DNA from: Actinomycetes bacterium
Lineage (GTDB): Bacteria > Actinomycetota > Actinomycetes > S36-B12
Length of the DNA stretch: 64,000 bases
Direction: 5' to 3'
Assembly: GCA_024641635.1 (NCBI GenBank)
Contig: JAHECS010000013.1
Span: forward strand, 9,482-73,481
The notes under the pieces were generated by a model. That model was given only the letters and a program-made list of their open reading frames with translations, had not been told where the DNA came from and ran no database searches. The position numbers were made by a program, and so were the translations under genes. Below, one piece after another: positions 35,164 to 53,630 of the stretch (the first letter of the stretch is position 1; the number at the start of each line of letters is the position of its first letter).

Positions 35164-35169
35164 GCCCGC

Positions 35170-35367: not shown

Positions 35368-35382
35368 CGTGGTCCCTTCGTG

Positions 35383-37208: not shown

Positions 37209-38146
37209 GCGTTCGCTCCCGTCGTGGTGCCGGCCTTGTGATGTGCGATCGCCTCGCCGACGCGCTGAGCGGCTGCGGTCATGATGTCCAGGTTCCCCGC
37301 ATAGGGGGGCAGGTAGTCGCCGGCTCCTTCCACCTGCAGCAGGACGACCGCGCGGTGGGGGACGACGCCACCGGGGGTGGAGAACGGGCCCTCCTCGATC
37401 ACCGGCGGGTTCTTGAGCCGGTAGCCGGGCACGTACTTCTGCACGTCCGCCTCCATGGCGAGGACGCTCTCGAGCACGGCGTCATGGTCGGTGCCCTCGG
37501 GCAGGGCCGCGAACACCGTGTTGCGCATCATGATCGGCGGTTCGGCCGGATTGAGGATGATGATCGCCTTGCTCGTGGTCGCGCCGCCGATCTCTCGAAG
37601 CGCCGTCGACGTGGTCTTGGTGAACTCGTCGATGTTCTGTCGCGTCCCGGGGCCCGCGCTCTTGCTCGCCACGGTCGACACCATCTCCGCGTACGGCAGG
37701 TCCGCGAGCGCCCGGCGCACCGCGTACACCATCGGCGTCGTCGCCTGCCCGCCGCATGTGACCATGTTGATGTTTGGCGCGTCGAGGTGCTCCGTCAGGT
37801 TCACCGCCGCGATCACCTTCGGCCCCCGGGCCGCAGGAGTCAGGTCGACGGCCGTGATGCCCGCCTCCTGGTACTGCTTGTAGTGGCGCACGTGCACGTA
37901 CGCACTGGTCGCGTCGAACACCATGTCGATGTCGTCGGCGTGCTCGAGGATCCAGTCCGGACCTTCATGGGGTCCGTCGATGCCCAGGCGCTTCGCGCGG
38001 GCGAGCCCGTCCGAGGCCGGGTCGATCCCGACGAGCGCCACGAGCTCGAGCGGTGTGGGGGCGCTCCCAGAGGCGTCCGTGCCCTTCAGGAGCTTCATCA
38101 TCAGGTCCGTGCCGATGTTGCCCGAACCCAGGATCGCGCACCGCAT
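37205..38146 (-). CDS. Acetaldehyde dehydrogenase (acylating)
   Basis: [14 protein letters not shown].. and ..[10 protein letters not shown].. (catalytic Cys), DmpF family. The start was trimmed to MRCAILG. Confidence 0.9.
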
Positions 38147-38148
38147 GA

Positions 38149-38949
38149 CTAGCCCCTCGCCATCTTGATCGTGATCGGCCCCAGCCGATCGAAGTCGGCC
38201 CGGAAGACGTCTCCCGGCTCCACCGGAACCATGGCGTGCAGAGCCCCGGTCATGATCACGCTTCCGGCCGGCAGGATCACGCCCATGGGCGCCAGGGTGT
38301 TCGCCAGCCACGCCACGGCGGCGAGCGGATCACCGAGCGCGGCCGCGCCGGCGCCCGTCGCGACGACCTCGCCGTTCCTCGTGAACACCATGCCGAGCAG
38401 CCGCGGGTCGAAGCCGTCGATCGGGATCACGGTGCTCGACAGGGCGATGGCCCCGTTGCTGGCCAGGTCCGCGACCGTGTCGGCCAGCTTGATCTTCCAG
38501 TCCTTGATGCGCGAGTCGACGATCTCCAGCGCCGCGACCAGGCCGCCTGTCGCGGCCCGTGCCTGGGCAGGGGTGCAGTCGGGTCCGGTCAGGTCGCGAT
38601 CGAGAATGACCGCGATCTCTGCCTCCATCCGCGGTGCGATGAACCGATCCACCGGCAGCTCGGCACCGTCCCGGTACACCGTGGAGGCGAACACGGGCCC
38701 GAAGTCGGGGGAGTCCACGCCGAGCAGCTGCTGCATCGGCAGAGAGGTCAGACCGAGCTTGTAGCCGACGATGCTCTCGCCATCGGCCACCAACCGCGAC
38801 ACCAGACGCTGCTGGATCGCATACCCGTCAGCCATCCCGAGGTCCGGCAGGGCGTCGGTGAAGGCAGCGATGGGAACCCTCGACCGGCGCGCCTCGTACA
38901 GCTGCGCCGCGAAGCCCTCGGCCTGATCGTCGGTCACGTTGGCGGTCAT
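38149..38949 (-). CDS. 2-oxopent-4-enoate (2-keto-4-pentenoate) hydratase-like
   Basis: Same family as 35383-36162 (..[15 protein letters not shown]..), in the dmpE-equivalent position. Confidence 0.7.
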
Positions 38950-39794
38950 GCACCGTCCCTTCTCGTGGTGGAGTCCCGATACCCGAGTCGCCTGCTGATC
39001 GCCAAGCCGGCCTCCACGGTGGGGCGGGCGAAGCGCTTGAGGGAGTCGCCGGTCAGGCGCTGGATGGGGCCGGCGACGGATACGGCAGCCACCACCTCGC
39101 CGAGGCCGTTCCGGATGGGAGCGGCGATCGACGCAACGCCCAACTCGGCCTCGTTCACGTTCTCCGACCATCCCCGATGGCGCACGCCCTCCAGCTCCTG
39201 CCGCAGGCGGTCGATGTCGGTGATGGTGTGCGGCGTATGGGGCGAGAGCTCCCAGTCCGTCAGCAGCGGGTTGAGGCGGTAGGGAGGCAGGAAGGCGAGC
39301 AGGAGCTTGCCCGTGCTGGTGCAGTGGGCGTCGTTCCGGTGGCCCACCCGGCCGAACAGGCGCAGCGTCTGGGGGCTCTCCCGGCGCTCGACGTAGACGA
39401 CCTCTCGTCCGTCGAGGACGGCGACCTGCACCGTCTCGCGCGTCGCGTTGCGAAGCTGGTCGAGAACGGGGGAGCAGGCCTCGTGCAGATCGGTATGCAG
39501 GGAGACCGATGCGCCGAGCTCGTACATCGCCAGTCCCAGACGGTAGGCGCCCGTGTCCGGGTCCTGCTCGAGGAGCTTCTCCTCCGCAAGGGTGTTGAGC
39601 AGTCGGTGGGCCGTGCTCTTCCCGATCCCCAGCCGACGGCTGAGCTCCGTGACGCCGATCTCGCGGCTGCCTCGGGAGAACTCCTTCAGCAGGCGGGCGG
39701 CGTTGCGCACGCTGGACAGGGTCGAGTGGTGACGTCGGGCGACCGGCGCCTCGGGATCGAGATCCGCATCCTCGGATGCCAGCTCATCTGTCAC
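38946..39794 (-). CDS. IclR-family transcriptional regulator
   Basis: HTH ..GVTELSRRLGIGKSTAHRLLNTL.. and an IclR effector domain (..HCTSTGKLLLA..). 4-nt overlaps with both neighbours. Confidence 0.85.
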   Translation of the reverse strand: MTDELASEDADLDPEAPVARRHHSTLSSVRNAARLLKEFSRGSREIGVTELSRRLGIGKSTAHRLLNTLAEEKLLEQDPDTGAYRLGLAMYELGASVSLHTDLHEACSPVLDQLRNATRETVQVAVLDGREVVYVERRESPQTLRLFGRVGHRNDAHCTSTGKLLLAFLPPYRLNPLLTDWELSPHTPHTITDIDRLRQELEGVRHRGWSENVNEAELGVASIAAPIRNGLGEVVAAVSVAGPIQRLTGDSLKRFARPTVEAGLAISRRLGYRDSTTRRDGA

Positions 39795-40501
39795 GGCCGT
39801 CCCTCCCGGAGAGTGGCCAGCAGGGTCCGTCGAACCTCCACGGGATCCGGATCCTCGAGACCGATGGCTTCGAGGGCGTCGCTGCCTCCTGCGATCTGCC
39901 GCGCGATCAGCAGGGCCGCCCGCGGCAGGGACGCCACGTCAGCACCGCGCAGCTCCGCGACGAGGTCGGCTGATCGGGGCGCGAGCTCCGCGATGGTGTC
40001 GAAGTCGCGCATGGCCGCCGCATGCGAGTGCGCCAGCCCGGTACCGGCGTGCATCGCGTGGTGCGGCGACAGGCCACCCCCGGGGGGCACGGACAGGTGG
40101 TAGACGACGGTGCGGATCCCCAGGACGTCTCGGACCCGAGCGGGCTGGGGTTCGTCGGACTCCTCGACGAGTCCCAGTGCGGGCAGGACGACGGGGTCGA
40201 AGAAGCGCAGACGCCACGACAGCCCGTCCAGCGCGTCGGCAAGCTCGACCTCCTGTCCAGCCGGGGGAGGCAGCGCCTCGCGGGTGGCAAGAACGTGCAG
40301 GCTGCGGGCGCCGACGGCCACCACCGTGAGGTCGTCGGCCTGCACGAGGGGGAGGCGGGATCGGTCGGCCGGGGGCAGCAGGGCGGCCGCGTCGAGGTAG
40401 GCCTGGTGGACGGCCCGCACGTAGTCGGCCATGGCGCGACGCATGGCATCCGGCGCTGCCGGAGCTGCGGCCGAGGGCGACGTCGACGGGTCGGGGCTCA
40501 T
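39791..40501 (-). CDS. Hypothetical protein, first gene of the regulator/lower-pathway operon
   Basis: GC3-biased ORF whose stop overlaps the iclR start (4 nt). I recognised no motif. The start was set to MSPDPS (40501) because the longer ORF would cover the operator-like palindrome. Confidence 0.45.
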   Translation of the reverse strand: MSPDPSTSPSAAAPAAPDAMRRAMADYVRAVHQAYLDAAALLPPADRSRLPLVQADDLTVVAVGARSLHVLATREALPPPAGQEVELADALDGLSWRLRFFDPVVLPALGLVEESDEPQPARVRDVLGIRTVVYHLSVPPGGGLSPHHAMHAGTGLAHSHAAAMRDFDTIAELAPRSADLVAELRGADVASLPRAALLIARQIAGGSDALEAIGLEDPDPVEVRRTLLATLREGRP

Positions 40502-40523
40502 CGATCGGGAGGCTAGCAGGGTC

Positions 40524-40560
40524 GTCCCGCATGATGGGACACCGTACTTCCATGCGGGAC
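40524..40560. promoter_or_regulatory. Candidate operator in the divergent catabolic promoter region
   Basis: Perfect 10-bp inverted repeat GTCCCGCATG (40524-40533) / CATGCGGGAC (40551-40560). A third half-site GGGAC lies at 40536-40540. Confidence 0.4.
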
Positions 40561-40638
40561 GCATCTGCCATAGCGTCGAAGCAACGCAGTGGCGCCGGTC
40601 ACACGGTCAGCCGATCATCACCGTGAAGGAGAGCATCT

Positions 40639-41547
40639 ATGGGGATCCTCCGGCTCGGGCACGTCGACATCACGGTGACGGACCTGGACCTGGCTACCGC
40701 CTACTACACCGAGGTCATCGGCCTGCAGGAGACGGAGCGCGACGAGGACTCCGTCTACCTCAAGTGCTGGGACGAGCCGGGCCATCACTCCCTGCGCCTG
40801 ATCTACGGGCCTCGCGTCGGCTTCGACCAGATGTCCTTCCGCGTCGAGCGCGAGTCTGACCTCGACGACCTCGAGAACGCGGTGCAGCGGTGGGGCTATC
40901 CCGTACGGCGGGTGTCGAAGGGCGAGGCCGTGGGACAGGGCGAGTCCATCCGGTTCGAGACACCCTCCGGTCAGCAGATGGAACTCGTCCACGACATCGA
41001 GATGGTGGGCAGGGCCACGGCCCCGATCAACCCGGCGCCGTTCGTGGAGGGGCTGAAGGGGATCGCCCCGCCCCGGCTGGACCACATCCTGGTGACCGCC
41101 GAGGAGGTGGGTGACTCGGCACGGTTCTACATGGACGTGTTCGGCTTCCGCCTCACCGAGCAGCTCCTCGATGGCGCGGGCCACCAGCAGGCCGTCTGGA
41201 TGGAGACCTCGCACAGCCCGCACGACCTGGCCATCGTGACCGGCAAGAACGGCGGGCTGCACCACTTCGCCTGGTGGCTCGACGACTGGGACCACGTGCG
41301 CCGCTCAGCGGACATCCTCGCCTACAACGGCATCCAGATCGACGTGGGTCCGACGCGGCACGGCATCACGAGGGGCAACACGATCTACTTCTTCGACCCG
41401 CTCGGAACGCGGAACGAGGTGTTCACCGGCGGGTACCGACCGGACCCGGACTTCCCGACGATCACGTGGACCGAGGACAACATCGGCCGCGCCGTCTTCT
41501 ACTACGAGGGCGAGCTGAACCAGCGATTCATGTCGGTGCACACATGA
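40639..41547 (+). CDS. Extradiol dioxygenase, catechol 2,3-dioxygenase type (copy 1)
   Basis: Two-domain VOC fold. Candidate metal ligands in ..RLDHIL.., ..LHHFAWW.., ..TRNEVF... Confidence 0.85.
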   Translation: MGILRLGHVDITVTDLDLATAYYTEVIGLQETERDEDSVYLKCWDEPGHHSLRLIYGPRVGFDQMSFRVERESDLDDLENAVQRWGYPVRRVSKGEAVGQGESIRFETPSGQQMELVHDIEMVGRATAPINPAPFVEGLKGIAPPRLDHILVTAEEVGDSARFYMDVFGFRLTEQLLDGAGHQQAVWMETSHSPHDLAIVTGKNGGLHHFAWWLDDWDHVRRSADILAYNGIQIDVGPTRHGITRGNTIYFFDPLGTRNEVFTGGYRPDPDFPTITWTEDNIGRAVFYYEGELNQRFMSVHT

Positions 41548-42455
41548 GCATCCTGAGACTGTCGCACGTGGAGATCCGCGTCCCCGATCTCGAGTTGGCC
41601 ACGGCGTACTACACCGAGGTCGTCGGCATGTACGAGACCGCGCGCGAGCCCGATCGCGTCTTCCTCAAGTGCTGGGACGAGCACCAGCACCACTCGCTCA
41701 TCCTCCGGTTCGCGCCGACGTACGGCCTGGACCACATGGGCTGGAAGGTGGAGAGCCGGGAGGACCTGGACGAGTACGCGACGCGCCTGGCGGAGGTCGG
41801 CGTCGACATCGTCCGGCACGATGCCGAGGAGATCGGCCCGGGGCACGGTGAGGCGATCCGCTTCACGCTGCCGAGCGGGCACCTCATGGAGCTCGTCCAT
41901 GGGATGGAGCAGGTGGGCAACCTGCTCCCCAACACCAACCCTCCGCCCAAGCCGCTGGGGCTGGTCGGCTTCGCCCCGCCGCGGCTTGACCACATCTTCC
42001 TCACCTGCGAGGACGTGAACCTCAACACGCGCTTCCTCGTCGACGTGCTCGGCTTCCACCTCACCGAGCAGGTCCTCGGTGACGATGGCTTCCAGGTGGC
42101 CACGTGGCTGGAGGTGTCCCACGCGAGCCACGACATCGCCCTCGTGACCGGGCAGGACCGTGGGCTCCACCACTTCGCCTGGTGGGTGGACGACTGGAAC
42201 GAGATCCGGAACGTCGCCGACGTCCTTGCGTACCACGGCGTCCGCATCGAGACGAACCCGACGAGGCACGGCGCGACCCGTGGCCACTGCATCTACTTCT
42301 TCGACCCTGCCGGGAACCGGAACGAGGCGTTCACCGGTGGCTACTGGGTCGATCCCGACGAGCCGCCGGTCACGTGGACCGAGGCCGAGATGGGTCGGGC
42401 GATCTTCTACTACGACGGGGTCGTCAATCAGCGATTCCTCACGGTCCACAGCTGA
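41544..42455 (+). CDS. Extradiol dioxygenase, catechol 2,3-dioxygenase type (copy 2)
   Basis: ATGA overlap with copy 1. Collinear paralogue with more than half of positions identical by eye. Same H/H/E motifs (RLDHIF, LHHFAWW, NRNEAF). Confidence 0.85.
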   Translation: MSILRLSHVEIRVPDLELATAYYTEVVGMYETAREPDRVFLKCWDEHQHHSLILRFAPTYGLDHMGWKVESREDLDEYATRLAEVGVDIVRHDAEEIGPGHGEAIRFTLPSGHLMELVHGMEQVGNLLPNTNPPPKPLGLVGFAPPRLDHIFLTCEDVNLNTRFLVDVLGFHLTEQVLGDDGFQVATWLEVSHASHDIALVTGQDRGLHHFAWWVDDWNEIRNVADVLAYHGVRIETNPTRHGATRGHCIYFFDPAGNRNEAFTGGYWVDPDEPPVTWTEAEMGRAIFYYDGVVNQRFLTVHS

Positions 42456-42465
42456 GGGGAAGATC

Positions 42466-43599
42466 ATGACCACGTCAGACGTGCGGGATGCACAGTCGTC
42501 CGCGTCCCTGCCGCGGACCGAGCGCAACGACGCCCCGGCCTACCTGCAGAAGTACCTCGACCGCGCCGGGCGCGGCGGCAAGCCGCACGAGGTCGTCGAC
42601 CGCGGCGACGAGGACTCGACGCCGCTCTACCTGCGACGCTTCCGTGACCGGCGCAGCGGGGCCAACCCGCTCGAGGCGCCGGTGCCGGAGTGGGAGGGTC
42701 ATGACCTGGGCGTGACCCAGGCACGTGCCCGGATCACGAAGACCAAGGAGATCGTTCCCGAGACCGCGGCGCAGGCCGGTCCGCAGACCGTCACGCAGGT
42801 GCACATCATCCGGCACGGGGAGACCCAGGGGTACTCGACGGAGAGCGGCCTGACGCCGCTGGGCAGCTGGCAGGCCCACCGCCGCGGCTTCGACATCAGC
42901 AAGGGGATCCGCGAGGGCGAGCGGGTCCGCATCGTGTGCGCCGACACCAACCGCGCCCGCCAGACCGCGGAGCAGATCCGCAAGGGCCTGCTCGACGGCC
43001 TGACGATGTGGGGAAGGTCCGCCGACATCTCGGATGTCGACGGCATGGCGGAGTTCCGGAACTTCCAGGTCTGGACCCCCGAGGGGCTGCGCGACGTCAC
43101 CGGCGCGTTCCGCCTGTACCAGAAGGAGATGGAGAAGTACGAGCGCGTCGCCCGCGGCGACCGGCCCCTGTGGCTGGTCGAGGTCGACCGGTTCTGGCGC
43201 ACCCAGCAGGGTGGCGGAGACCCCATCACCTACTGGACGCAGATCCCGATGCTCTGCTTCGAACCGCCGTCCGCGACCGTCCGCCGGTTCTGGGCCGGCA
43301 TCCTGCGCATCCAGGCGGAGACCCAGGGCGAGCGCATCATCGTGGCCACGCATTCCGGCCCGATCCGTGTCTTCGCCATGGCCGCCCATGGCTACGACCC
43401 GGGGGAGCCGTACAACACGGAGGAGGTCATCGTGAAGCTGCTCGACGGCGACGCGGGCGCCTTCCTCGCCTACCGCAATCGGGTCTCCGAGGTGCAGGTA
43501 CCCCGGCTGGAGCAGCTTCCCGACTGGTGGGAGGGGCTCAGCGGCCGTGCCCTGCCCACATCACTTCGTACCGACACCCCACAGGAGGCAACGCAGTGA
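42466..43599 (+). CDS. Histidine phosphatase superfamily protein with ~110-aa N-terminal extension
   Basis: RHG motif VHIIRHGETQGY and second catalytic His region ..VATHSGPIRV... Confidence 0.7.
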   Translation: MTTSDVRDAQSSASLPRTERNDAPAYLQKYLDRAGRGGKPHEVVDRGDEDSTPLYLRRFRDRRSGANPLEAPVPEWEGHDLGVTQARARITKTKEIVPETAAQAGPQTVTQVHIIRHGETQGYSTESGLTPLGSWQAHRRGFDISKGIREGERVRIVCADTNRARQTAEQIRKGLLDGLTMWGRSADISDVDGMAEFRNFQVWTPEGLRDVTGAFRLYQKEMEKYERVARGDRPLWLVEVDRFWRTQQGGGDPITYWTQIPMLCFEPPSATVRRFWAGILRIQAETQGERIIVATHSGPIRVFAMAAHGYDPGEPYNTEEVIVKLLDGDAGAFLAYRNRVSEVQVPRLEQLPDWWEGLSGRALPTSLRTDTPQEATQ

Positions 43600-44687
43600 C
43601 GACGTCCATCATGTGGTTCGAGAGCTACTGGGAGGGCATGAAGCCCGAGGTCGGTGGCAAGGCTTCGAGCCTCGGCGAGATGACGGGGGCAGGCCTGCCC
43701 GTGCCCCCCGGGTTCGCGCTGACGACCGAGTCCTACCGGAAGTCGCGCGACGCGGTGAACCTCGACGCGACGCTCGTCCGGCTGCTGCACGGCCTGGACG
43801 TGGACGACATGGCCATGGTGTCCGACCGGTGCTCGCGCATCCGGTCGCACATCGAGACGATGGCGATGGACCCTGACGTGGAACAGCGGCTGAGGTACGC
43901 CTACGCCGAGCTGGGGCGTCGCTGCGGCGTCGAGGACGTCCCGGTCGCGGTCCGGTCGTCGGCGACGAGCGAGGACTCCCCGGACGCCTCCTTCGCGGGT
44001 GAGCACGACACGTACCTGTGGGTTCGCGGCGCGGACAACGTCGTGGATGCCGTCCGGCGGTGCTGGGCATCGCTGTTCACCGATCGCGCCACCTGCTACC
44101 GCGTTGAGATGGGCTACGACCATCGATCCGTGGAGATGAGCGTCGTGGTCCAGAAGATGGTGCGCCCCATCGCGGCGGGGGTGGCCTTCACGTTGAACCC
44201 GTCGGACGGTGACCGCTCCACTGTCGCGATCGACTCCGCGTGGGGATTCGGCGAGGGCGTCGTATCGGGCGAGGTGACGCCGGACAACTTCCTGGTGGAC
44301 AAGGTGCTCTACGAGATCAGCCGCCGGAAGGTCGCCACCAAGGAGGTCGAGTTCCGGCTCAGCGACGAGGGCCACGTCGAGAAGGTCCCGCTGGAGGGGG
44401 AGAGAGCGTCCGAATCCAGCCTCACGGACCCGCAGCTCAAGGCCATCGCCCGGCTCGCGCGCACGGCGGAGAAGCACTACGGGTGCCCGCAGGACATCGA
44501 GTGGGCCGTCGACATGGATCTCCCCGACGGCGAGAACGTCGTCCTCCTCCAATCGCGCCCCGAGACCGTCTGGAGCAAGAAGGCCGCAGCCGAGGCGGCG
44601 GCCAAGGCGACAGCAGCCGGGAGCGGCGACATGATGGCGAGCATCGTGTCCACTCTCATGAATCCCCTGCACAGCCGGAACAAGTAG
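43596..44687 (+). CDS. PEP/pyruvate-binding (PPDK_N, ATP-grasp) protein, phenylphosphate synthase beta (PpsB)-like
   Basis: GTGA overlap with the phosphatase stop and AGGAGG 7 nt upstream. ..GGKASSLGEM..GLPVPPGF..VAVRSSATSEDSPDASFAG..DIEWAV.. Confidence 0.8.
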   Translation: MTTSIMWFESYWEGMKPEVGGKASSLGEMTGAGLPVPPGFALTTESYRKSRDAVNLDATLVRLLHGLDVDDMAMVSDRCSRIRSHIETMAMDPDVEQRLRYAYAELGRRCGVEDVPVAVRSSATSEDSPDASFAGEHDTYLWVRGADNVVDAVRRCWASLFTDRATCYRVEMGYDHRSVEMSVVVQKMVRPIAAGVAFTLNPSDGDRSTVAIDSAWGFGEGVVSGEVTPDNFLVDKVLYEISRRKVATKEVEFRLSDEGHVEKVPLEGERASESSLTDPQLKAIARLARTAEKHYGCPQDIEWAVDMDLPDGENVVLLQSRPETVWSKKAAAEAAAKATAAGSGDMMASIVSTLMNPLHSRNK

Positions 44688-44733
44688 TCGCACAATTCAC
44701 CCCACCCGCACCAGCCCAACCAAGGGAGTTCGC

Positions 44734-46545
44734 ATGGCCGATCGGTTCCCCAGTCCTTTCGAGATCGAGACGCCCGAGGGCGCCGAAGGCTGGCAAGACA
44801 TGTACGTGTACTCCTCGCTCTTCAGTGAGGGGCGGCGCGAGTTCGACGACAACACCTTCTGGTTCCAGGACGGCGTCCACTGGCCCAAGGTCCTGACTCC
44901 GTGGGACGCGACCTTCTTCGAGTTCGGCATCGCCTCCCTCTCGCAGTACAACACCCGTCACCTCCAGGTCCCGCCGGCCAACGGGATCGCGTTCCGCATC
45001 CTCAACGGCTACGGCTACCTGACCCCGATCGGGGCCGATCCGGCGACCATCGAGGAGCGCGTTGCCAACTTCATGGATCGTGCCGGGTTCTACTTCATGA
45101 ACTGGAACGACCTGTACGACAAGTGGATGCTGAAGATGCGCGACCTGGTCGCTGAGCTCGAGGCAGTGTCCTTCGACGCGCTTCCCGACATCGAGGACGC
45201 GGACGAGGTCGTCAAGTCCGGTGCCGGTGTCGGCTCGGGCTACCGGATCCAGGAGAGCTACCGCAACCTCCTCAACCTCGGTCTCAAGCTGTGGAACTAC
45301 CACTTCGAGTTCCTCAACCTCGGCTATGCCGCGTACCTGGACTTCTTCGGGTTCTGCAAGGAGGCCTTCCCGAGCATCCCCGACCTGGCCATCGCCAAGA
45401 TGGTCGCCGGAGTCGAGGTCGATCTCTTCCGGCCGGACGAGGAGCTGAAGCGGCTCGCCCGCATGGCGAACGACACCGGGGTGGGCGACGCCTTCGCCGG
45501 GGGCGATGTCGAGGCCACCTGCCAGATCCTGAAGTCGACCCCGCAGGGCGAGGCGTGGATCGCCTCGTTCCAGGAGTCCGCGGAGCCGTGGTTCAACTTC
45601 TCCACGGGGTCCGGGTTCTACCACTCGGACAAGATCTGGATCGAGAACGTCGAGGTCCCGTTCGGCTTCATCGACAACTACATCCGGCTGCTGCGCGAGG
45701 GCGAGGACCTGGCCCGTCCGATGGACGCCATCCGGGCCGAGCGCGACCGGATCGTCAGCGAGTACAGCGAGCTGCTGCTGACCGACGAGGACCGCGAGGC
45801 CTTCCAGGGCAAGCTCGGCCTGGCGCGGGTGGTCTTCCCATACGTGGAGAACCACAATTTCTACGTCGAGCACTGGAGCCACTCGGTGATCTGGCGCAAG
45901 ATGCGCCAGCTGGGGGAGCTGTTCGTCAAGGAGGGCTTCTTCTCCGACGCGAACGACATCTTCTACCTCAAGCGCACCGAGGTCGAGGACGCACTGTGGG
46001 ACTACTACGTCTCCTGGGCGACCCCGGAGCAGGCTGCCGGTCCCGGCTTCTGGCCGCCGATCGTGCAGAAGCGCCGGGATATCTGCGCCGCGCTGTCGAA
46101 GGTCAAGCCCACGCCGGCGCTGGGCGTCCCGCCGGAGGTCATCACGGAACCCTTCACGGTCATGCTGTGGGGCATCACGTCGGAGAGCACCAAGGCATGG
46201 CTCGGCGGTGGCGCGGGCGAGGAAGGCGTTCTCACCGGCATGGCCGCGTCACCGGGCGTCGTCGAGGGGTTGGCGCGAGTGATCTTCTCGCCTGACCAGA
46301 TCGGCGAGATCCAGCAGGACGAGATCCTCGTGGCCCCGTTGACGGCACCGTCCTGGGCGCCGATCTTCGGCAAGATCCAGGCCACGGTCACCGACACCGG
46401 CGGGATGATGAGCCACGCCGCCATCGTGTGCCGCGAGTACGGGCTCCCCGCCGTCACGGGTACCGGCTTCGCCACGGCGACGATCAAGACGGGCGACCGC
46501 ATCCGGGTGGATGGGTCCAACGGCAAGGTCACGGTGATCAGCTAG
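44734..46545 (+). CDS. PEP-utilising-enzyme mobile-domain protein, phenylphosphate synthase alpha (PpsA)-like
   Basis: 603 aa. The ~480-aa N-terminal region lacks the PEP/pyruvate TIM-barrel motifs. The C-terminal swivel domain carries the phospho-His signature TDTGGMMSHAAIVCREYGLPAV. Confidence 0.8.
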   Translation: MADRFPSPFEIETPEGAEGWQDMYVYSSLFSEGRREFDDNTFWFQDGVHWPKVLTPWDATFFEFGIASLSQYNTRHLQVPPANGIAFRILNGYGYLTPIGADPATIEERVANFMDRAGFYFMNWNDLYDKWMLKMRDLVAELEAVSFDALPDIEDADEVVKSGAGVGSGYRIQESYRNLLNLGLKLWNYHFEFLNLGYAAYLDFFGFCKEAFPSIPDLAIAKMVAGVEVDLFRPDEELKRLARMANDTGVGDAFAGGDVEATCQILKSTPQGEAWIASFQESAEPWFNFSTGSGFYHSDKIWIENVEVPFGFIDNYIRLLREGEDLARPMDAIRAERDRIVSEYSELLLTDEDREAFQGKLGLARVVFPYVENHNFYVEHWSHSVIWRKMRQLGELFVKEGFFSDANDIFYLKRTEVEDALWDYYVSWATPEQAAGPGFWPPIVQKRRDICAALSKVKPTPALGVPPEVITEPFTVMLWGITSESTKAWLGGGAGEEGVLTGMAASPGVVEGLARVIFSPDQIGEIQQDEILVAPLTAPSWAPIFGKIQATVTDTGGMMSHAAIVCREYGLPAVTGTGFATATIKTGDRIRVDGSNGKVTVIS

Positions 46546-46599
46546 GGCCTATCCGGTGGTCCCGGCCGCACCGGGACGTTCGTCACAACTTCATACCCA

Positions 46600-46643
46600 G
46601 GTTCCGTCGGGCGGGACAGCGATGTTGCCCGCCCGACGGAACC
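46600..46643 (+). terminator. Perfect 16-bp stem hairpin between the kinase genes and the Rieske oxygenase
   Basis: GGTTCCGTCGGGCGGG (46600-46615) pairs with CCCGCCCGACGGAACC (46628-46643), with a 12-nt loop. There is no U-tract. It could be a terminator, attenuator or mRNA-processing/stability element. Confidence 0.4.
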
Positions 46644-46688
46644 GAGGGAACGTAGCCACACCCTCTGCACGCCTGAAAGGACGCTCGA

Positions 46689-47948
46689 ATGCTCACGGTC
46701 GAACAGAACGAGGAACTGACCCAGGTCGGCCCCGGCACGCCGATGGGCGAGCTGCTGCGGCGCTACTGGTACCCCATCGCCTTCGAGCAGGACTTCGACG
46801 CGGTGTCCACGAAGACCGTGCGGCTCCTCTCCGAGAACTGGACCCTGTTCAAGACGCCCAAGAGCGGCCGGTACGGCATCGTCCTCGAGACGTGTCCGCA
46901 CCGCAGCGCGTCCCTGACCTACGGCGTGGTCCACGAAGACGGCATCCGCTGTGGGTACCACGGCTGGAAGTGGGACTTCGACGGCAACTGCGTCGAGCAG
47001 CCGGCCGAGGCCGACAACCAGAACTTCCGTGATCGGGTCAAGCAGAAGGCCGGCAAGGCGCAGACCATGGGCGGCATGGTGTGGGTCTACGTCGGGCCAG
47101 ACCCGGCGCCTGAGCTTCCCCGCTTCGACGTCTTCGTCGAGGACGGCGTCCGCGACGTCGGGCACTCGACGCTCCCCTGCAACTGGCTGCAGATCATGGA
47201 GAACTCCGTCGACCCGCACCACGTCGAGTGGCTGCACGGCTACTACTTCGAGTTCCTCGGCCAGACCGAGGGCTTCGACGCCCCGAAGGCGTTCCAGAAG
47301 AAACACCTGAAGACCGGCTTCGAGGAGATGGAGTGGGGCATCCTCAAGCGGCGCGTGCTCGAGGGTGGCACCGAGGAGAACGACGACTGGAAGGTCGGGC
47401 ACCCTCTGGTGTTCCCCTTCTACATGCGCGTCGGTGGCGCCGGGATCGACCAGATGCAGATCCGGGTGCCGATCGACGACACGACCACCTGGAAGCTCTT
47501 CTACTCGCTGCACCATCCTGAGGCCGGCGAGTGGGAGCCGCAGGACCGTCCCGTCGTCTACGAGTACCTCTGGCGCGACGAGACCGGCCGCTTCATCACC
47601 GACTACATCGAGGGCCAGGACATCATGGCCTGGGTCTCGCAGGGCCCCGTCACCGATCGCACGCAGGAGCATCTCGGGCGTTCGGATGCCGGTGTCGCCA
47701 TGCTGCGGAAGATGTTCAAGGAGAACATCAAGAAGGTGCAGGACGGCCAGGATCCGATCGGCACCATCCGCGAGCCGCATGACATCGTCCGGCTGCCATG
47801 CGAGCGGGACAAGTTCGGTGCCGAGCGGGAGTTCGCCGCAGCCTTCATCACCATGGGCTCCATGCGCTACAGCCCGATCAAGCAGAGGCTGCTGGACCTG
47901 CACGAGAATGCCTGGGCCAACCGCGCCAAGGCCTCGACTGGTGCATGA
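46689..47948 (+). CDS. Rieske non-haem iron oxygenase, alpha-subunit-only type (phthalate/VanA/LigXa-like class)
   Basis: Rieske motif CPHRSASL..(x)..CGYHGWKW and mononuclear Fe motif NSVDPHHVEWLH. No beta-subunit gene follows. Confidence 0.85.
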   Translation: MLTVEQNEELTQVGPGTPMGELLRRYWYPIAFEQDFDAVSTKTVRLLSENWTLFKTPKSGRYGIVLETCPHRSASLTYGVVHEDGIRCGYHGWKWDFDGNCVEQPAEADNQNFRDRVKQKAGKAQTMGGMVWVYVGPDPAPELPRFDVFVEDGVRDVGHSTLPCNWLQIMENSVDPHHVEWLHGYYFEFLGQTEGFDAPKAFQKKHLKTGFEEMEWGILKRRVLEGGTEENDDWKVGHPLVFPFYMRVGGAGIDQMQIRVPIDDTTTWKLFYSLHHPEAGEWEPQDRPVVYEYLWRDETGRFITDYIEGQDIMAWVSQGPVTDRTQEHLGRSDAGVAMLRKMFKENIKKVQDGQDPIGTIREPHDIVRLPCERDKFGAEREFAAAFITMGSMRYSPIKQRLLDLHENAWANRAKASTGA

Positions 47949-48204
47949 TCGAGTCGTGCTCCCTCCTGATCCCCATCGCCTGCCTCCGCGAGAGGCGTGG
48001 TTCGCCCGCGACGCCGAGCGGCACCTGCTCGATCGCCCGCGGTTCTGCCCGATGTGCGGGGAGGGCCTGGACGCCGACGGTGGGATCAGCACGGAGTACT
48101 GGGCAGCCGACGCGAGGTACTTCATGACCTGGTGCGGGGGTTGCGGCTGGTTCGGCGAGGTCGTCCGGTTCGACATGGTGACCATCACGGAAGTGGAGCA
48201 CTGA
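47941..48204 (+). CDS. Cys4 zinc-ribbon miniprotein
   Basis: GTG start overlaps the oxygenase stop by 8 nt. Strong GC3 bias. CPMC..(x23)..CGGC. 87 aa. Confidence 0.5.
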   Translation: MHDRVVLPPDPHRLPPREAWFARDAERHLLDRPRFCPMCGEGLDADGGISTEYWAADARYFMTWCGGCGWFGEVVRFDMVTITEVEH

Positions 48205-48223
48205 CACGCATGGTCGCCGTCTC

Positions 48224-48871
48224 ATGACCGCCCTGATCTTCGACTTCGGCGGCCCGGTCCTGCTGACCCCGTTCGAGCTGCGGTACGTCGGCGAGCGCGA
48301 TCTCGGGCTCCCGCCGGGCACCTTCGGCTGGACGGGCCCCTTCGCGCCGGAGCAGGACGCGCCCTGGCAGGACTTCCAGTCGGGGGGGATGAACGAGCGC
48401 GAGTACTGGGCGCTGCGGGCTCGGGAGTTCGCCGACCTGACCGGCGAGGAAGCCACCATGAAGGCCCTGTGCGCGCACCTCTACTCGGGCTCGGAGGAGG
48501 AGCTGGTCCGTCCGGGGGCGAGGGCGCTGATGCGGGACGCGAAGGCTGCGGGCATCCCGGTGGGCGCGCTGACGAACGACCTCACGTCCTTCCACGACGA
48601 CGAGTGGCTGGGGCGGATGTCGATCCTCCGCGAGTTCGAGGTGCTCGTCGACGGGCGCACGGAGGGCGTGTACAAGCCCGACCCGGCCATGTACCGGATC
48701 ATCCTCGAACGGATGGACATCCCCGCCGAGGGCACGGTGTTCCTCGACGACCAGCCCGTCAACCTGGCCGGCGCGGAGGCTGTCGGGATGACTCCGGTGC
48801 ACCTGGACCCCGTCGATCCGGAGCCAGGGTTTAGGTTGTGTCGCGAACTGTTAGGACTTCCACAGGAGTAG
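48224..48871 (+). CDS. HAD-superfamily hydrolase (subfamily IA-like; motif I is D-F-G-G)
   Basis: Motif I LIFDFGGPVL, motif II ALTND, and motif III/IV ..VYKPDP..VFLDD... Confidence 0.75.
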   Translation: MTALIFDFGGPVLLTPFELRYVGERDLGLPPGTFGWTGPFAPEQDAPWQDFQSGGMNEREYWALRAREFADLTGEEATMKALCAHLYSGSEEELVRPGARALMRDAKAAGIPVGALTNDLTSFHDDEWLGRMSILREFEVLVDGRTEGVYKPDPAMYRIILERMDIPAEGTVFLDDQPVNLAGAEAVGMTPVHLDPVDPEPGFRLCRELLGLPQE

Positions 48872-48874
48872 CCC

Positions 48875-50218
48875 ATGCGCGTCGCCGTCGTCGGTTCCGG
48901 TCCCTCAGGCGTGTACGCGGCGGACGCGCTCGTCTCCCAGGACGACGTGCCCGTCGAGGTCGACATCATCGACCGCCTCCCGGTGCCGTTCGGGCTTGTG
49001 CGGTACGGCGTCGCCCCCGATCACCTGAGCATCCGGTCGGTGCGCGACACCCTCGACAAGGTGCTGGACAAGCCGGGCGTGCGCTTCCTCGGCAACGTCA
49101 CCGTGGGCGAGGACGTCTCGATGGCGGAGCTCCACGAGTGCTACGACGCCATCGTGCTGACCTACGGAGCGTCGCGTGACCGCCGGCTGGGGATCCCGGG
49201 TGAGGACCTCGACGGCAGCGTCGCCGCGACGGACTTCGTCGCCTGGTACTGCGGGCATCCGGATGCGGACAGGGCCACGTTCGAGCGGCTCGTTCCGACG
49301 GCCACGAGCGCGGTCGTCGTGGGCGTGGGGAACGTCGCCGTGGACGTCACGCGCGTCCTGGCGAAGACGGTCGGAGAGCTGGACCACACCGACATGCCGC
49401 AGCACGTGTTCGACACCCTCGCGCAGTCGCAGGTGACCGATGTCTACCTGCTCGGTCGTCGCGGACCTGCGCAGGCGGCGTTCACGACCAAGGAGCTCAA
49501 GGAGCTCGGTGAACTCGTGGATGCCGAGGTCATCGTGCGTCCCGAGGACGTCGAGCTCGACGAGGCGAGCGCTGCCGTGGCCGCGTCGGAACGAGCCGTC
49601 GGCCGCAACGTCGATGTCATCCGCGAGTGGTCACTGCGCGCACCCGAGGGCAAGCGCCGCCGCATCCACGTCCGATTCCTGTCGCGTCCCGTCGAGATGC
49701 TCGGCGACGACCGGGTGCGAAGCGTGGTCGTCGAGCGCACCCGCCTGACGCCGGAGGGCAAGGCCGAGGGCACCGGTGAGATGGAGGAGATTGCGGCCGA
49801 CCTCGTCGTGCGCTCGGTCGGCTACCGCGGAACCGCGCTCGGCGACGTCCCCTTCGACAGCGACCGCAACGTCATCCCACACACGGCCGGTCGCGTCGAG
49901 CGCGACGGGGTGGTCGTGCCCGGCGAGTACGTGGCCGGCTGGATCAAGAGGGGCCCGACCGGGATCATCGGCACGAACAAGAAGGACGCTGTCCAGACGG
50001 TCGCGTCGCTCCTGGAGGACGCCGCCGCAGGGCGCCTGCCCCAACCGGGCAGGCCCGGCGGGATCGACGGCGTCCTGGATGAGCATGGGGTCCGCGCGGT
50101 GACCACCGCCGGCTGGAGGGCCATCGACGCTGCCGAGCGCAGTCTCGGGGCCACTCGGGGCCGGGACCGCACGACGATCCACGACCGCGACGACCTGCTC
50201 GCCGCCGGCGGGGTCTAG
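48875..50218 (+). CDS. Ferredoxin-NADP+ reductase, FprA/adrenodoxin-reductase type
   Basis: VAVVGSGPSGVYAA (FAD), VVVGVGNVAVDVTR (NADPH), and ..GWIKRGPTGIIGTNK... Confidence 0.85.
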   Translation: MRVAVVGSGPSGVYAADALVSQDDVPVEVDIIDRLPVPFGLVRYGVAPDHLSIRSVRDTLDKVLDKPGVRFLGNVTVGEDVSMAELHECYDAIVLTYGASRDRRLGIPGEDLDGSVAATDFVAWYCGHPDADRATFERLVPTATSAVVVGVGNVAVDVTRVLAKTVGELDHTDMPQHVFDTLAQSQVTDVYLLGRRGPAQAAFTTKELKELGELVDAEVIVRPEDVELDEASAAVAASERAVGRNVDVIREWSLRAPEGKRRRIHVRFLSRPVEMLGDDRVRSVVVERTRLTPEGKAEGTGEMEEIAADLVVRSVGYRGTALGDVPFDSDRNVIPHTAGRVERDGVVVPGEYVAGWIKRGPTGIIGTNKKDAVQTVASLLEDAAAGRLPQPGRPGGIDGVLDEHGVRAVTTAGWRAIDAAERSLGATRGRDRTTIHDRDDLLAAGGV

Positions 50219-51180
50219 CCGGACCAGGGGCGACCCGGAGACAGCTCCGCGCAGGTCCATCGGTGGCCGGCAACGAGCTCGCCGGTGCAGGACTCGCGTC
50301 GCGCTGCGGGCAGATCGATGCGTCGCAGAAGTGCACGCCAGGTTCGACCGTCTCGATGCCGTACCTCGCCGACGATGGAATCCGCATCGCCGCTCAGCTC
50401 GACCCCCGGCGACAGCGGGACGGCCTTGTCGCCCACCACCCGCAGGACGTCAAGGTCCTCCACATCCTCGATGCCGTAGTCGGTGCGCACCTCGATGGCG
50501 GCCACCTGGAAGGGAGGGGGCAGGGCGGTACGGCCACGGTACGAGTCCAGCAGGATCTGTCCCCGAGACGAACGTTCGATGACCAGCTCCGCCTCGGCCG
50601 GCCCGAGGCGCCCGTGCACGGCCGCGGTCGGCAGGCTCAGCATGACCGGGGCGAACCGGTGCCCGCCGATGTGGCTGCACTCCCACAGCCGATCCCGTTC
50701 AGCAGCCTCGGCTCGGGACTCGAGCAGAGTCGCGAGCAGCGGCCGTCCGGCCGTCGCACAGCACTGGTCGCGAGTCCCGTTGGTGCAGACGAAGTGAACC
50801 GGTGAACGCTCGACCCGCCCAAGGGCCGGAAGCGCGCCTTCGGCGATCGCACGCAGGTCCCAGGACATGAGCTCGCGGAGGTCCGCCACGACGCCGTGAC
50901 GCAGCAGGGCCCCACCCGGCGCGCTGCGGGCCACCCACACATGCCTCTCAGGACCGACCGTGCGTTCCGGACGGTCGGGATGGCGGGCCAGGATCACCTT
51001 CACCCCGGTGCCGTCCGCGGCGGACAGGTGGGCCGCAAGAGCCTCCGGAAGACGGCTCTCGGTGACCGCCTTGCGGCCCCACGGGCCCGGCTGCTCGACG
51101 ACGATCCAGGAGCTGGCCAGCGGAGCGGTGCCGGCCAAGGGCTCGCCGACCTGCCGGGAGTCCTGGGAGCAGGTCGTCAC
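50215..51180 (-). CDS. Sucrase/ferredoxin-like (thioredoxin-like 2Fe-2S) family protein
   Basis: ..[23 protein letters not shown].. is characteristic of the family. Its start overlaps the parC stop by 4 nt. Confidence 0.6.
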
Positions 51181-53630
51181 AGCGTTCCTCCGATCCCGCC
51201 GATGGGAGCCGGCGACGGTGTGCCCGTGCCGTCACGGCGCGGGTCTGGGGCAGGCAGGGGGACGGGGACTCCGGAGACGGTGGCAGCTCGAGCCGGACCG
51301 CGGCCGACCCATGCCAGGAGCAGCCGGTCCTCGCCCGTACGGAACCGATGGCACCGGACCCCGGCGGTGGCACGTCCCTTGCCGGGGTACTCCGAGAACG
51401 GCGTCACCTTCAGGGTTCCGGCCTCGGTGCCGGGGAGGGCCGCCCCGGAGCCGGCCACCGTGACGACCAAGCACTCGTCGCTCGGGGTGACCGCGGTGAA
51501 GGACACGACCTCGGCACCGGGGGCGACCTTGATGCCCGCCATGCCGCCAGCACTGCGGCCCTGCGGACGGACGGTCGATGCCGGGATGCGCAGGAGCTGG
51601 GCGTCCGAGGTGACGAAGACCAGCTCGGCCGCCTCGGCATCGGCCTCCGGCAGCCGGATCGCACCGACGACGCGATCGCCCGGGTCGAGGCGGATGACCT
51701 CCCATGAGTCCTTGTTCTGCGGAGCGTCGGGGACCACCCGCTTGACCACGCCCGATGCCGTCGCCAGCGCCAGCCCGGCCGAGTCGTCGATTGTGGTCAG
51801 GCACAGCGGCTGCTCACCGCCGGGCAAGTCGGCGAACGCGCCCAGCGGCGCCCCGGCGGAGAGCGCGGGCACTCCGGACACCGTCGGCATGGACGGCAGG
51901 TCGATCGCCCGGAGGCGGAGCACCCGACCGGCGCTGGTCACCAGTCCGAACTCGCCCCGCGACGTCGCCGGAACGGCACTGACGATGACGTCGTGCGTGG
52001 CCCGTTGGTCGTGGGCGGCGTCCCCCGGAGGGAGGGTGTCCGGGGTGCGGGCCAGCAGGCCGGTGCTCGACAGGAGGACGACGCATGGCTCGTCGTGCAC
52101 CTCGAGTGGCACCGAGGCCGTCACGGGCGCCGACGACGCTTCCATGAGGAGCGTCCGCCGCGGTGTCGCATGCGCCTGCGCGACGCTGGCGATCTCGTCG
52201 GAGACCGTGGCGCGGAGGACGTTGTCGTCCTCGAGGATCTCCGTGAGTGCGGCGATCTCGCGCCGAAGGTCGTCGCCCTCCTTCTCGAGCTCGAGCCGCG
52301 AGAACTTCGTGAGGCGCCGCAGGGGCATCTCGAGGATGTAGGACGCCTGCACGTCCGTGAGGTCGAACACGGCCATCAGCCGCTCCTTGGCCGACGCGGC
52401 GTCGTCCGACTCCCGGATCAGCTGGATGACCTCGTCGATGTCGAGGATCGCGACGAGCAGCCCCTCGACGAGGTGGAGTCGCGCCTCCGCCTTCGACCGC
52501 CGGAACGCGCTGCGGCGCCGGACGACCTCGAGCCGGTGGTCGAGCCACACGCGCAGCATCGTCAGCAGGCCCAGGGTCTGCGGCTGGCCGTCCACGAGCG
52601 CCACCGCGTTGATGTTGACGGTGTCCTCCATCGGCGTCAGCTTGAACAGGTGCTCCAGGACGGCCTCGGGGTGGAATCCGTTCTTCACCTCGATGACGAG
52701 GTTGAGGCCGCTGTCTCCGTCCGTGAGATCGACGACGTCCGAGATGCCCTGCAGCCGCTTGGCCAGCACCGCGTCCTTGATGCGGTCGATGATGCGCTCG
52801 GGTCCGACGTTGTAGGGCAGCTCGGTCACGACGATGCCGCGTCGCCGTGGCGTGATCTGCTCCACCCGGGTGCGTGCCCGGACTCGGAAGCTGCCCCGGC
52901 CAGTGGCGTACGCATCACGCACGCCGTCGAGTCCGATGATGACCCCGCCGCCGGGGAAGTCCGGACCGGGGATGAGGGTCATGATCTCGGCGAGGGTTGC
53001 GTCCGGGTTGGCGAGCAGGTGCCGAGCCCCGTTGAGCACCTCGCCGACGTTGTGCGGCGCCAGGGTCGTCGCCATGCCGACGGCGATGCCCGAGGCCCCG
53101 TTGACGAGGAGGTTGGGGATGGCCGCGGGCAGGACCGTCGGCTCGGTCTCGCGACCGTCGTAGTTCGCGCCGAAGTCGACGACGTCCTCGTCCAGGCCCG
53201 CCGTCATGTCCATCGCGGGACCGGCGAGGCGAGCCTCCGTGTAGCGCATGGCCGCCGGACCGTCGTCGAGCGAGCCGAAGTTGCCGTGGCCGTCGACCAT
53301 GGGCAGCCTCAGCGTGAACGGCTGCGCCATGCGGACGAGGGCGTCGTAGATCGCGGAGTCTCCGTGCGGGTGCAGGCGGCCCATCACCTCGCCGACGACG
53401 CGGGCGCTCTTGACGTGCCCACGGTCCGGGCGGAGGCCCATCTGGGCCATCTGGAACAGGATGCGGCGCTGGACGGGCTTGAGGCCGTCGCGGGCGTCCG
53501 GCAGGGCTCGCGAGTAGATGACGGAGTAGGCGTACTCGAGGAAGGACCCGCGCATCTCCTCGGACACGTCGATGTCGACGATGCGCCCGTGCGCGGGTGG
53601 ATCCGTCTTCCGGGTCGTGCGGCGTGCCAT
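51177..53630 (-). CDS. parC: Type IIA topoisomerase subunit A (topoisomerase IV ParC / GyrA2 type)
   Basis: ..[26 protein letters not shown] (catalytic Tyr). I saw no GyrA-box (QRRGGKG) in the C-terminal domain. Confidence 0.85.

Follow-up and report, generated by a model that had tools for sequence, protein, structure and literature searches.

Within a 64,000-nucleotide stretch from an Actinomycetes bacterium (contig JAHECS010000013.1; the whole stretch is referred to below as the window), we identified a gene cluster at positions 34777-50218 that encodes a two-component dikinase, a Rieske oxygenase, phosphatases and the enzymes of catechol meta cleavage. The kinase, Rieske oxygenase, phosphatase and meta-cleavage genes are one conserved unit, and the cluster is a real, widespread and apparently undescribed variant of phosphorylation-primed aromatic catabolism. 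From the sequences and their gene context, we lean towards reading 34777-50218 as a single catabolic cluster, which would turn a small phenol with a single ring (phenol, a 4-alkylphenol or guaiacol) into a catechol and pass it on to meta cleavage.

Gene content and conservation of the cluster

The original prediction had described seven plus-strand genes at 42466-50218, directly downstream of two extradiol dioxygenase genes, as a phosphorylation-primed aromatic oxidation module, and this interpretation was partly supported. The seven genes encode, in order, a histidine phosphatase, an ATP-grasp protein, a swivel phospho-His protein, a Rieske oxygenase, a Cys4 miniprotein, a HAD hydrolase and an FprA-type reductase. 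All are intact open reading frames, the coding frames were clear from third-position G+C (0.86-0.92 across the seven), and all seven family assignments hold. Both genes directly upstream encode catechol 2,3-dioxygenases that score above the TIGR03211 cut-off. The tight spacing that had been proposed stands for six gaps of -4 to 46 nucleotides (nt; 10, -4, 46, 7, 19 and 3 nt) but not for the junction between the swivel and Rieske genes, where a spacer of 143 nt is the sole wide gap. As an outline of the whole module, the seven-gene set was too narrow; the full cluster covers 34777-50218 and includes a divergent minus-strand operon, and a conserved orphan protein of 213 amino acids (aa), an IclR-family regulator and the lower pathway had been left out.

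One genome per species was scanned for relatives of the oxygenase, which gave at least 587 stretches, and the best 80 were kept. All cluster proteins of the window were searched against these 80 loci by tblastn, with the loci long enough to tell as denominators. The order IclR, orphan protein, two catechol 2,3-dioxygenases, histidine phosphatase, ATP-grasp, swivel, Rieske, Cys4 and HAD was kept in nearly all of the 80 species-level genomes and, by tblastn, in every locus of sufficient length; the lineages included Nanopelagicales-type metagenome-assembled genomes, Longivirga, Micromonospora, Actinokineospora, Nostocoides and several Nocardioides species. The Rieske gene was accompanied by the swivel gene at 63 of 64 loci, by the ATP-grasp (PPDK_N) gene at 59 of 60 and by the histidine phosphatase gene at 57 of 58. 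The Cys4 and HAD genes were present at all loci that could be judged (74/74 and 69/69, respectively), FprA at 33/63, the IclR gene at 51/52 and the orphan gene at 51/54. The gene arrangement is far beyond chance, and the kinase pair lay beside the Rieske oxygenase in nearly all of the loci examined, in line with the linkage that the original prediction had drawn between them.

Acidimicrobiales contigs, which were fetched separately and carry an oxygenase 62% identical to that of the window, kept the core order as far as the Cys4 gene. The HAD gene was missing at some loci (e.g., L081), and the position after the Cys4 gene was broken by an insertion sequence (IS) element in L082 and L083. Besides the orthologous set, Pseudonocardia bannensis carried another, divergent module (L085 2065-7339), in which the genes for a Rieske protein, a small Cys4-like open reading frame, a HAD protein, an SDR protein and an AraC protein lie on one strand and the swivel and PPDK_N genes on the other. 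The identities to the window proteins were 55% for the Rieske protein, 36% for the Cys4-like protein, 39% for the HAD protein, 40% for the ATP-grasp subunit and 27% for the swivel protein, which also had a precomputed Pfam Rph_4th match. The presence of this second module indicates that kinase, Rieske, Cys4 and HAD genes recur jointly as a unit.

As a separate observation, what follows the Cys4 gene in Acidimicrobiales L082 (11646-12502) is the N-terminal part (105 aa) of the alpha subunit of a diiron phenol/toluene hydroxylase. Judged by eye, this fragment is cut off by what appears to be an IS110-type transposase gene.

The two-component dikinase

The ATP-grasp subunit (43596-44687, plus strand; 363 aa) matched PF01326 (PPDK_N) over residues 17-337 with an E-value of 2.5e-112. 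Its GTG start overlaps the stop codon of the phosphatase gene, and a Shine-Dalgarno-like AGGAGG lies ahead of it. The substrate-binding and swivel phospho-His subunit (44734-46545, plus strand) matched PF00391 (PEP-utilizers) at residues 527-597 and has a predicted catalytic His561. Neither protein had a Pfam match to PF02896 (PEP-utilizers_C), the phosphoenolpyruvate (PEP)/pyruvate-binding TIM barrel; the profile search thus bore out the claim of a split kinase that has the PPDK_N and PEP-utilizers domains and no PEP barrel.

The large N-terminal domain of the swivel subunit, which had been regarded as novel, was found to belong to a known family and fold. The entire subunit matched NCBIfam PRK08296 (825 bits), and its AlphaFold2 model was confident over residues 1-460, with a block-mean predicted local distance difference test score (pLDDT) of ~68-95, mostly >80. 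Sequence and profile searches of the N-terminal domain against the PDB returned the swivel domain only. The only significant matches in a Foldseek search against the PDB were structures of the Listeria rifampin phosphotransferase (RPH-Lm), with an E-value of ~5e-13 over ~610 columns. An RPH-type architecture has been reported for HpeH (PMC12167813). Taken together with the RPH-Lm fold match, this identifies the N-terminal domain as the substrate-binding domain of the family, of the rifampin-binding type.

The kinase was compared with homologs that were recognised by their gene context in annotated plasmid records, not by experiment. These comprised a CreH-like protein from Rhodococcus oxybenzonivorans pRB98 (L088; with P450, ferredoxin, reductase, HD phosphohydrolase and aldehyde dehydrogenase genes), PpsA from Azoarcus sp. 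KH32C pAZKH (L089; in the order ppsABC-ppc-UbiD-UbiX), an HpeH-like protein from Rhizobium leguminosarum (with biotin carboxylase, HAD and coenzyme A (CoA) ligase genes) and, as a comparator from secondary metabolism, a Bacillus thuringiensis kinase pair situated inside a nonribosomal peptide synthetase (NRPS) cluster. The window swivel subunit was 51% identical to the CreH-like protein, 47% to PpsA, 44% to the HpeH-like protein and 23% to the NRPS-linked kinase, and the ATP-grasp subunit was 49% identical to the partner subunits of the Cre-type and Pps loci. In a neighbour-joining tree without bootstrap, the orthologs of the window swivel subunit formed one clade adjoining the CreH-like protein. 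The catalytic motif reads GGMMSH(561)AAI, and GGxMSHAAI is common to all of the catabolic comparators (CreH-like, PpsA and HpeH-like). The serine before the catalytic histidine has been reported for PpsA and CreH (PMC12167813).

As a two-component dikinase, the kinase pair belongs to the PpsAB/CreHI/HpeHI group, and from this family membership it would be expected to phosphorylate phenols on the oxygen with ATP, yielding AMP and Pi. It groups neither with antibiotic kinases nor with PEP synthases, groupings that the original prediction had named beforehand as speaking against the proposed module. An identity as a PEP synthase or pyruvate phosphate dikinase (PPDK) was rejected because PF02896 is absent and the equivalog scores are far under the cut-offs. 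An RPH-type antibiotic kinase was likewise rejected, since the fold is shared but the sequence and gene context are those of catabolic phenol kinases.

Kinase pairs of this type were also seen in other settings. In Ensifer adhaerens HP1, the 3-hydroxypyridine dehydrogenase HpdA genetically needs PEP-utilising and PPDK-like proteins (bioRxiv 10.1101/2020.01.08.898148). The HpdA system resembles the cluster in that such a kinase pair is needed for hydroxylating a hydroxy-aromatic ring, and differs in its molybdenum enzyme, its N-heterocyclic substrate and the fact that no phosphorylated intermediate was detected. Thermomicrobium roseum has a kinase pair (46% identity) near a three-subunit enzyme of the xanthine dehydrogenase family (L090 8986-17462), an arrangement that recalls kinase-dependent HpdA. 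On a plasmid of Haladaptatus salinisoli (L093 2413-11945), genes for an alpha/beta-type Rieske dioxygenase adjoin those of a kinase pair from this family (40% identity), and further neighbours encode a metallophosphoesterase, a zinc alcohol dehydrogenase, an aldehyde dehydrogenase and a NUDIX hydrolase. This haloarchaeal locus looks like a Cre-like pathway in which a Rieske oxygenase replaces the P450.

Oxygenase, phosphatases and accompanying genes

The oxygenase gene (46689-47948, plus strand) encodes an alpha-only Rieske oxygenase of the phthalate/LigXa family, with Pfam matches to Rieske, LigXa_C and VanA_C; no gene for a beta subunit lies beside it in the cluster. The Rieske ligands C69/H71/C88/H91 (CxH...CxxH) and the mononuclear iron ligands D175/H178/H183 (Dx2Hx4H) were invariant in 13 sequences. 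The best PDB match was the phthalate dioxygenase (PDO) of Comamonas (7FJL; E-value 1e-47), and two uncharacterised homologs were also among the best solved relatives. The LigXa_C match is partial (residues 307-361), and no NCBIfam equivalog applies. Like PDO of Comamonas KF1 and LigXa, the protein is alpha-only and carries the Rieske and mononuclear iron motifs. The equivalent of PDO Arg231 (R221/R222) is conserved, PDO Arg207 lies within an insertion that is absent here, and Arg244 aligns ambiguously. The similarity to PDO/LigXa is limited (~E 1e-47), and the cluster differs from those systems in its linkage to a kinase and a Cys4 protein and in having no diol dehydrogenase or decarboxylase partners.

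The closest relatives of the oxygenase without a kinase neighbour were 47-49% identical and were found on Burkholderia and Peribacillus replicons. Their neighbours include genes annotated as dihydroxyphthalate decarboxylase and class II aldolase, and in Peribacillus also as a Gfo/Idh/MocA oxidoreductase; we take these families to resemble those of phthalate pathways. These neighbourhoods suggest that the oxygenase clade probably handles and dihydroxylates anionic aromatics. The follow-up enzymes found near the kinase-free relatives are absent from the kinase-linked cluster.

The 82-aa Cys4 zinc-ribbon-like miniprotein (47956-48204, plus strand) has four invariant cysteines and is read from a GTG start ~7-8 nt past the Rieske stop codon. 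Its family comprises 104 representative clusters with the signature CPxCG...EYW...WCxxCxWxGE. A member also follows the Rieske relative on the Peribacillus plasmid, with no kinase nearby (L087 10320-10520), which indicates that the Cys4 protein goes with the oxygenase and not with the kinase. It is likely an oxygenase accessory.

The last gene of the plus-strand series (48875-50218) encodes an FprA/adrenodoxin-reductase-type NADPH:ferredoxin reductase, which matched Mycobacterium tuberculosis FprA (1LQT) over residues 3-444 with an E-value of 5.7e-102. Loci of the Nocardioides and Micromonospora types have a different enzyme in the slot that follows the HAD gene, a PDR/VanB-type reductase with FNR-like (NAD_binding_1) and plant-type 2Fe-2S (Fer2) domains, the classical partner of phthalate-family oxygenases; PDO and these Nocardioides-type orthologous loci are alike in having a PDR-type reductase. 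No PDR/VanB-type partner is present in the window, and FprA occupies the slot. The non-orthologous reductases in the same position argue that the slot serves the oxygenase, and they show that FprA is lineage-specific; FprA is not a constant member of the module, being present at only 33 of 63 loci. The Rieske-type [2Fe-2S] ferredoxin that had been noted at 34777-35163 does exist (minus strand; Pfam Rieske 1.7e-18, Rieske_2), as the last gene of the lower-pathway operon. Its best NCBIfam match is AndAb-type, under the cut-off, and it also occurs beside the IclR gene at Nocardioides-type loci. It may carry electrons to the oxygenase.

The histidine phosphatase (42466-43599, plus strand) belongs to branch 1, with a His_Phos_1 score of 48.4 bits against a cut-off of 21.7 and the motif IIRHGETQG. 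RHGETQG and THSGPIR, which holds the second catalytic histidine, were kept in the 18 aligned orthologs. The protein is conserved throughout, including an N-terminal extension of ~110 aa (LPRTERPDAPAYL, PLYLRRFR) and a large insert; a PDB sequence search with it returned nothing. It is a candidate aryl-phosphate phosphatase. The second putative phosphatase is a HAD-IA hydrolase (48224-48871, plus strand; Pfam Hydrolase, HAD_2).

Upstream, the two catechol 2,3-dioxygenases are tandem paralogs on the plus strand (40639-41547 and 41544-42455) and scored 369 and 370 bits, respectively, against the TIGR03211 cut-off of 320. Iron-ligand and catalytic motifs could be read in both copies, and the closest solved relatives (5ZNH, 3HPV and 1MPY) are monocyclic catechol 2,3-dioxygenases. 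The divergent minus-strand operon contains, from the dioxygenase side outward, the orphan 213-aa protein (39791-40432), the IclR-family regulator (38946-39794; HTH_IclR and IclR_C), a 2-oxopent-4-enoate hydratase-like protein (38149-38940; FAA_hydrolase, 8e-17), an acylating acetaldehyde dehydrogenase (37205-38152; AcetDehyd-dimer, 1.4e-54), a 4-hydroxy-2-oxovalerate aldolase (36159-37208; HMGL-like and DmpG_comm), a 4-oxalocrotonate decarboxylase-like protein of the FAA hydrolase family (35383-36162; FAA_hydrolase), which is a paralog of the hydratase, a 4-oxalocrotonate tautomerase (35170-35367; Tautomerase, 1.4e-17) and the Rieske-type ferredoxin, all assigned by Pfam except the orphan. At Nocardioides- and Micromonospora-type loci, the lower pathway follows the PDR-type reductase and includes an aldehyde dehydrogenase (e.g., L067 17111-18553).

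The orphan gene and the dioxygenase operon are divergent, and the former shares 4 nt with the start of the IclR gene. Its product had no Pfam match even at an E-value of 0.1, and 313 homologs were found among 5.8 billion proteins, none of them named. The invariant motif is HHAxHxGTGL (consensus HHAxHAGTGLAH). The AlphaFold2 model had a pLDDT of 88 and gave no significant Foldseek match in the PDB (best, kanamycin nucleotidyltransferase, E-value 0.15).

Within the 143-nt spacer that separates the oxygenase gene from the kinase genes lies a perfect, G+C-rich hairpin of 16 bp (46600-46643, plus strand) with no U-tract after it, and the spacer folds at -72 kcal/mol. Comparable long hairpins were present at the equivalent position in related Nanopelagicales-type loci, sometimes with unrelated sequence. 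The hairpin might act as a partial terminator, or as an element of mRNA processing or stability that divides the operon. Rfam and promoter/terminator scans of the cluster returned nothing useful.

With a G+C content of ~70%, the window resembles an actinobacterial chromosome. The G+C falls to 0.65-0.67 (0.65 over 44-48 kb) across the genes for the kinase and the oxygenase, a dip that may reflect acquisition by transfer. The cluster is flanked by a gyrB/parE-like gene (31906-34200) and a gyrA/parC-like gene (51177-53630). In the region 50215-53630, a Suc_Fer-like gene (thioredoxin-like ferredoxin family) is convergent with FprA and overlaps the FprA stop codon by 4 nt; it remains beside the parC-like gene in related genomes. 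Elsewhere in the window, which otherwise looks aerobic and is high in G+C, a 1218-aa single-chain pyruvate:ferredoxin/flavodoxin oxidoreductase is encoded at 11478-15134 (plus strand).

Proposed pathway, alternative readings and significance

In the pathway that we propose, the dikinase (43596-46545) would first move the beta-phosphate of ATP via His561 onto the phenolic oxygen, as expected from its family. The Rieske oxygenase, together with the Cys4 protein, would then oxygenate the anionic aryl phosphate adjacent to the ester, a step suggested by the conserved gene linkage and the Cre and Hpe precedents. Electrons would pass from NADPH to FprA and on to the oxygenase, probably via the Rieske ferredoxin at 34777-35163. 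On the same grounds, the histidine phosphatase, and in many lineages also the HAD protein, would strip the phosphate to give a catechol. By family assignment, the two catechol 2,3-dioxygenases and the divergent operon would convert this catechol to pyruvate and acetyl-CoA. Both operons are probably regulated by the IclR protein, perhaps with the orphan 213-aa protein.

The Cre pathway, as Du et al. are said to have described in 2016, likewise runs through a kinase, a transformation of the phosphate ester and a phosphatase. The Hpe pathway, for which this sequence of steps is established, provides a further precedent (PMC9618137). Like the Cre system for 4-cresol of Corynebacterium glutamicum (CreHI-CreJEF-CreD), the cluster has the dikinase genes in the order ATP-grasp before swivel, and in both aerobic systems a dedicated oxygenase and its redox partners are accompanied by a phosphohydrolase and an IclR regulator. 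The oxygenase here is a Rieske enzyme whereas that of Cre is a P450 (CreJEF), and no P450 was found among the scanned genes of the window. The phosphatases are His_Phos_1 and HAD proteins in place of an HD-domain phosphohydrolase. The cluster has no alcohol or aldehyde dehydrogenases for side-chain oxidation, and it feeds catechol meta cleavage, whereas Cre feeds 4-hydroxybenzoate and protocatechuate. The cluster also differs from Cre in its Cys4 partner and its orphan protein.

With the PpsABC/phenylphosphate carboxylase system of Thauera, Aromatoleum and Azoarcus, the cluster shares the kinase family and the GGxMSHAAI motif, but the order of the kinase genes is opposite, the downstream enzymes are oxygen-dependent, and neither a CBS-domain PpsC nor a UbiD/UbiX-type carboxylase was found among the scanned predicted genes of the window. 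The anaerobic phenol route, already set aside in the original prediction for want of a UbiD/UbiX carboxylase, was rejected on this basis. The HpeHI-HpeCBA-HpeD and AcvABCDEF systems have in common with the cluster a kinase, an ester transformation and a HAD-type phosphatase (PMC9618137). Their middle enzyme is a biotin carboxylase that acts on the side chain, with no ring hydroxylation, and their products are vanillate and 4-hydroxybenzoate. The accessible full-text literature, outside of which most subscription journals lie, yielded the Pps, Cre, Hpe/Acv, MarK and HpdA systems and no description of a kinase that works with a Rieske oxygenase or with meta cleavage.

Several observations weigh against the proposed pathway. 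The assignment of the HAD protein as a phosphatase agrees with its family and with the conservation of the nucleophile Asp and motifs II-IV in 18 aligned orthologs, but motif I reads DFGG in the window protein and in all 18 of these orthologs, with Gly at D+2 in place of the usual general acid/base. We infer that this would be tolerable for a good leaving group such as phenolate. The claim of adjacent meta cleavage holds for the two catechol 2,3-dioxygenases, but no 2-hydroxymuconic-semialdehyde dehydrogenase or hydrolase was found in the 64-kb window, despite the presence of the tautomerase and the decarboxylase-like protein. FprA, which lies beside the Suc_Fer-like and parC-like genes, may merely be a neighbouring housekeeping gene in the lineage of the window. 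A comparison of kinase-linked and kinase-free Rieske sequences gave nine differing positions, none of which adds positive charge for phosphate binding, and was uninformative. Finally, the conversion of ATP to AMP would be spent on a hydroxylation that flavin and diiron enzymes perform without ATP, and the advantage is not obvious.

The best placed of the alternatives, although an unlikely one, is that the oxygenase is an O-demethylase. A methoxyphenol such as guaiacol would be phosphorylated, the ester demethylated to 2-hydroxyphenyl phosphate and formaldehyde, and the former dephosphorylated to catechol. The LigXa_C and VanA_C matches of the oxygenase, the JGI annotation of orthologs as 5,5'-dehydrodivanillate O-demethylase and the lack of a dihydrodiol dehydrogenase in the cluster would all fit, and the related dikinase AcvAB phosphorylates guaiacol (PMC12624787). 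However, the LigXa_C match is limited to residues 307-361, the best solved relatives are ring-hydroxylating phthalate dioxygenases, the nearest kinase-free relatives lie among genes resembling dihydroxylating phthalate-type pathways, and no formaldehyde-handling gene is present in the cluster.

Next in order, and also improbable, is that the kinase and the oxygenase have separate substrates. Phosphorylation and dephosphorylation would then serve to trap, detoxify or regulate, with His_Phos_1 acting on the phospho-His of the swivel subunit, while the Rieske enzyme would oxidise an unphosphorylated anionic aromatic. SixA-type phospho-His phosphatases belong to the same histidine phosphatase superfamily as the His_Phos_1 protein, and the hairpin parts the kinase half of the operon from the oxygenase half, both of which are consistent with this explanation. 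Trapping and detoxification have been proposed as rationales for Hpe phosphorylation (PMC9618137). The adjacency of kinase and Rieske genes in nearly all loci examined and in an independent paralogous module argues against it, as does the absence here of the diol dehydrogenase-like and decarboxylase-like neighbours of the kinase-free relatives.

It is doubtful, too, that the oxygenase dihydroxylates C1/C2 of the aryl phosphate by ipso attack, with spontaneous loss of the phosphate to give catechol, so that the phosphatases would only recycle or proofread mis-phosphorylated phenols or phospho-enzyme. Ipso attack by Rieske dioxygenases is known to be followed by elimination of sulfite, ammonia or halide. 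Although the nearest relatives are probably dioxygenases, the cluster has no diol dehydrogenase or decarboxylase; the HAD gene is absent from some loci such as L081, and the position after Cys4 is disrupted by IS elements in L082 and L083, all of which would be compatible with such a reaction. Conversely, the presence of the histidine phosphatase at 57 of 58 loci and its translational coupling to the kinase argue for an obligatory dephosphorylation. A near-universal, coupled phosphatase favours an oxygenase product that still bears the phosphate, as would result from ortho-hydroxylation or O-demethylation.

It is very improbable that the kinase pair inactivates antibiotics or xenobiotics as a phosphotransferase, or that it is a PEP synthase recycling meta-pathway pyruvate: the rifampin phosphotransferase fold, the sub-cut-off matches of NCBIfam PEP synthase models to the ATP-grasp subunit and the fact that pyruvate is a pathway product speak for it, but PF02896 is missing, PEP synthase and RPH models score far under their cut-offs, the identities to the CreH-like protein and PpsA (51% and 47%) stand against 23% to the secondary-metabolism kinase, and the pair sits in a catabolic operon in every lineage.

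Returning to the proposed route from phenol to catechol, a wider idea that we hold only tentatively is that the phosphate may be a removable anionic handle, which would let a phthalate-family Rieske oxygenase hydroxylate a simple phenol, that many Actinomycetota of soil and fresh water, most of them uncultured, may use the cluster as a main route for phenolics, and that the pairing of kinase and oxygenase may be a general principle with more than one origin. The last point is suggested by the divergent Pseudonocardia module together with the haloarchaeal alpha/beta Rieske dioxygenase beside its kinase pair.

The downstream enzymes known from phosphorylation-primed aromatic catabolism are a UbiD carboxylase, a P450 and a biotin carboxylase. 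If the proposed pathway is correct, these three classes would be joined by a fourth, a Rieske oxygenase that supplies meta cleavage, and it would be the first to hydroxylate the ring itself; the pathway would amount to an ATP-dependent aerobic route from a phenol to a catechol. An aryl-phosphate oxygenase and specific aryl-phosphate phosphatases would then be available for biocatalysis, akin to the "chemomimetic" CreHI/CreJEF system. The cluster also provides a context for three unannotated protein families, namely the Cys4 partner, the orphan 213-aa protein and the extended histidine phosphatase. As culturable species carry the cluster (Nocardioides zhouii, N. baculatus, N. litoris, Longivirga aurantiaca and a Micromonospora sp.), the hypothesis is directly testable. 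Many of the carriers are uncultured Nanopelagicales-type Actinomycetota, and the cluster may thus matter for the turnover of phenolics in soils and fresh waters.

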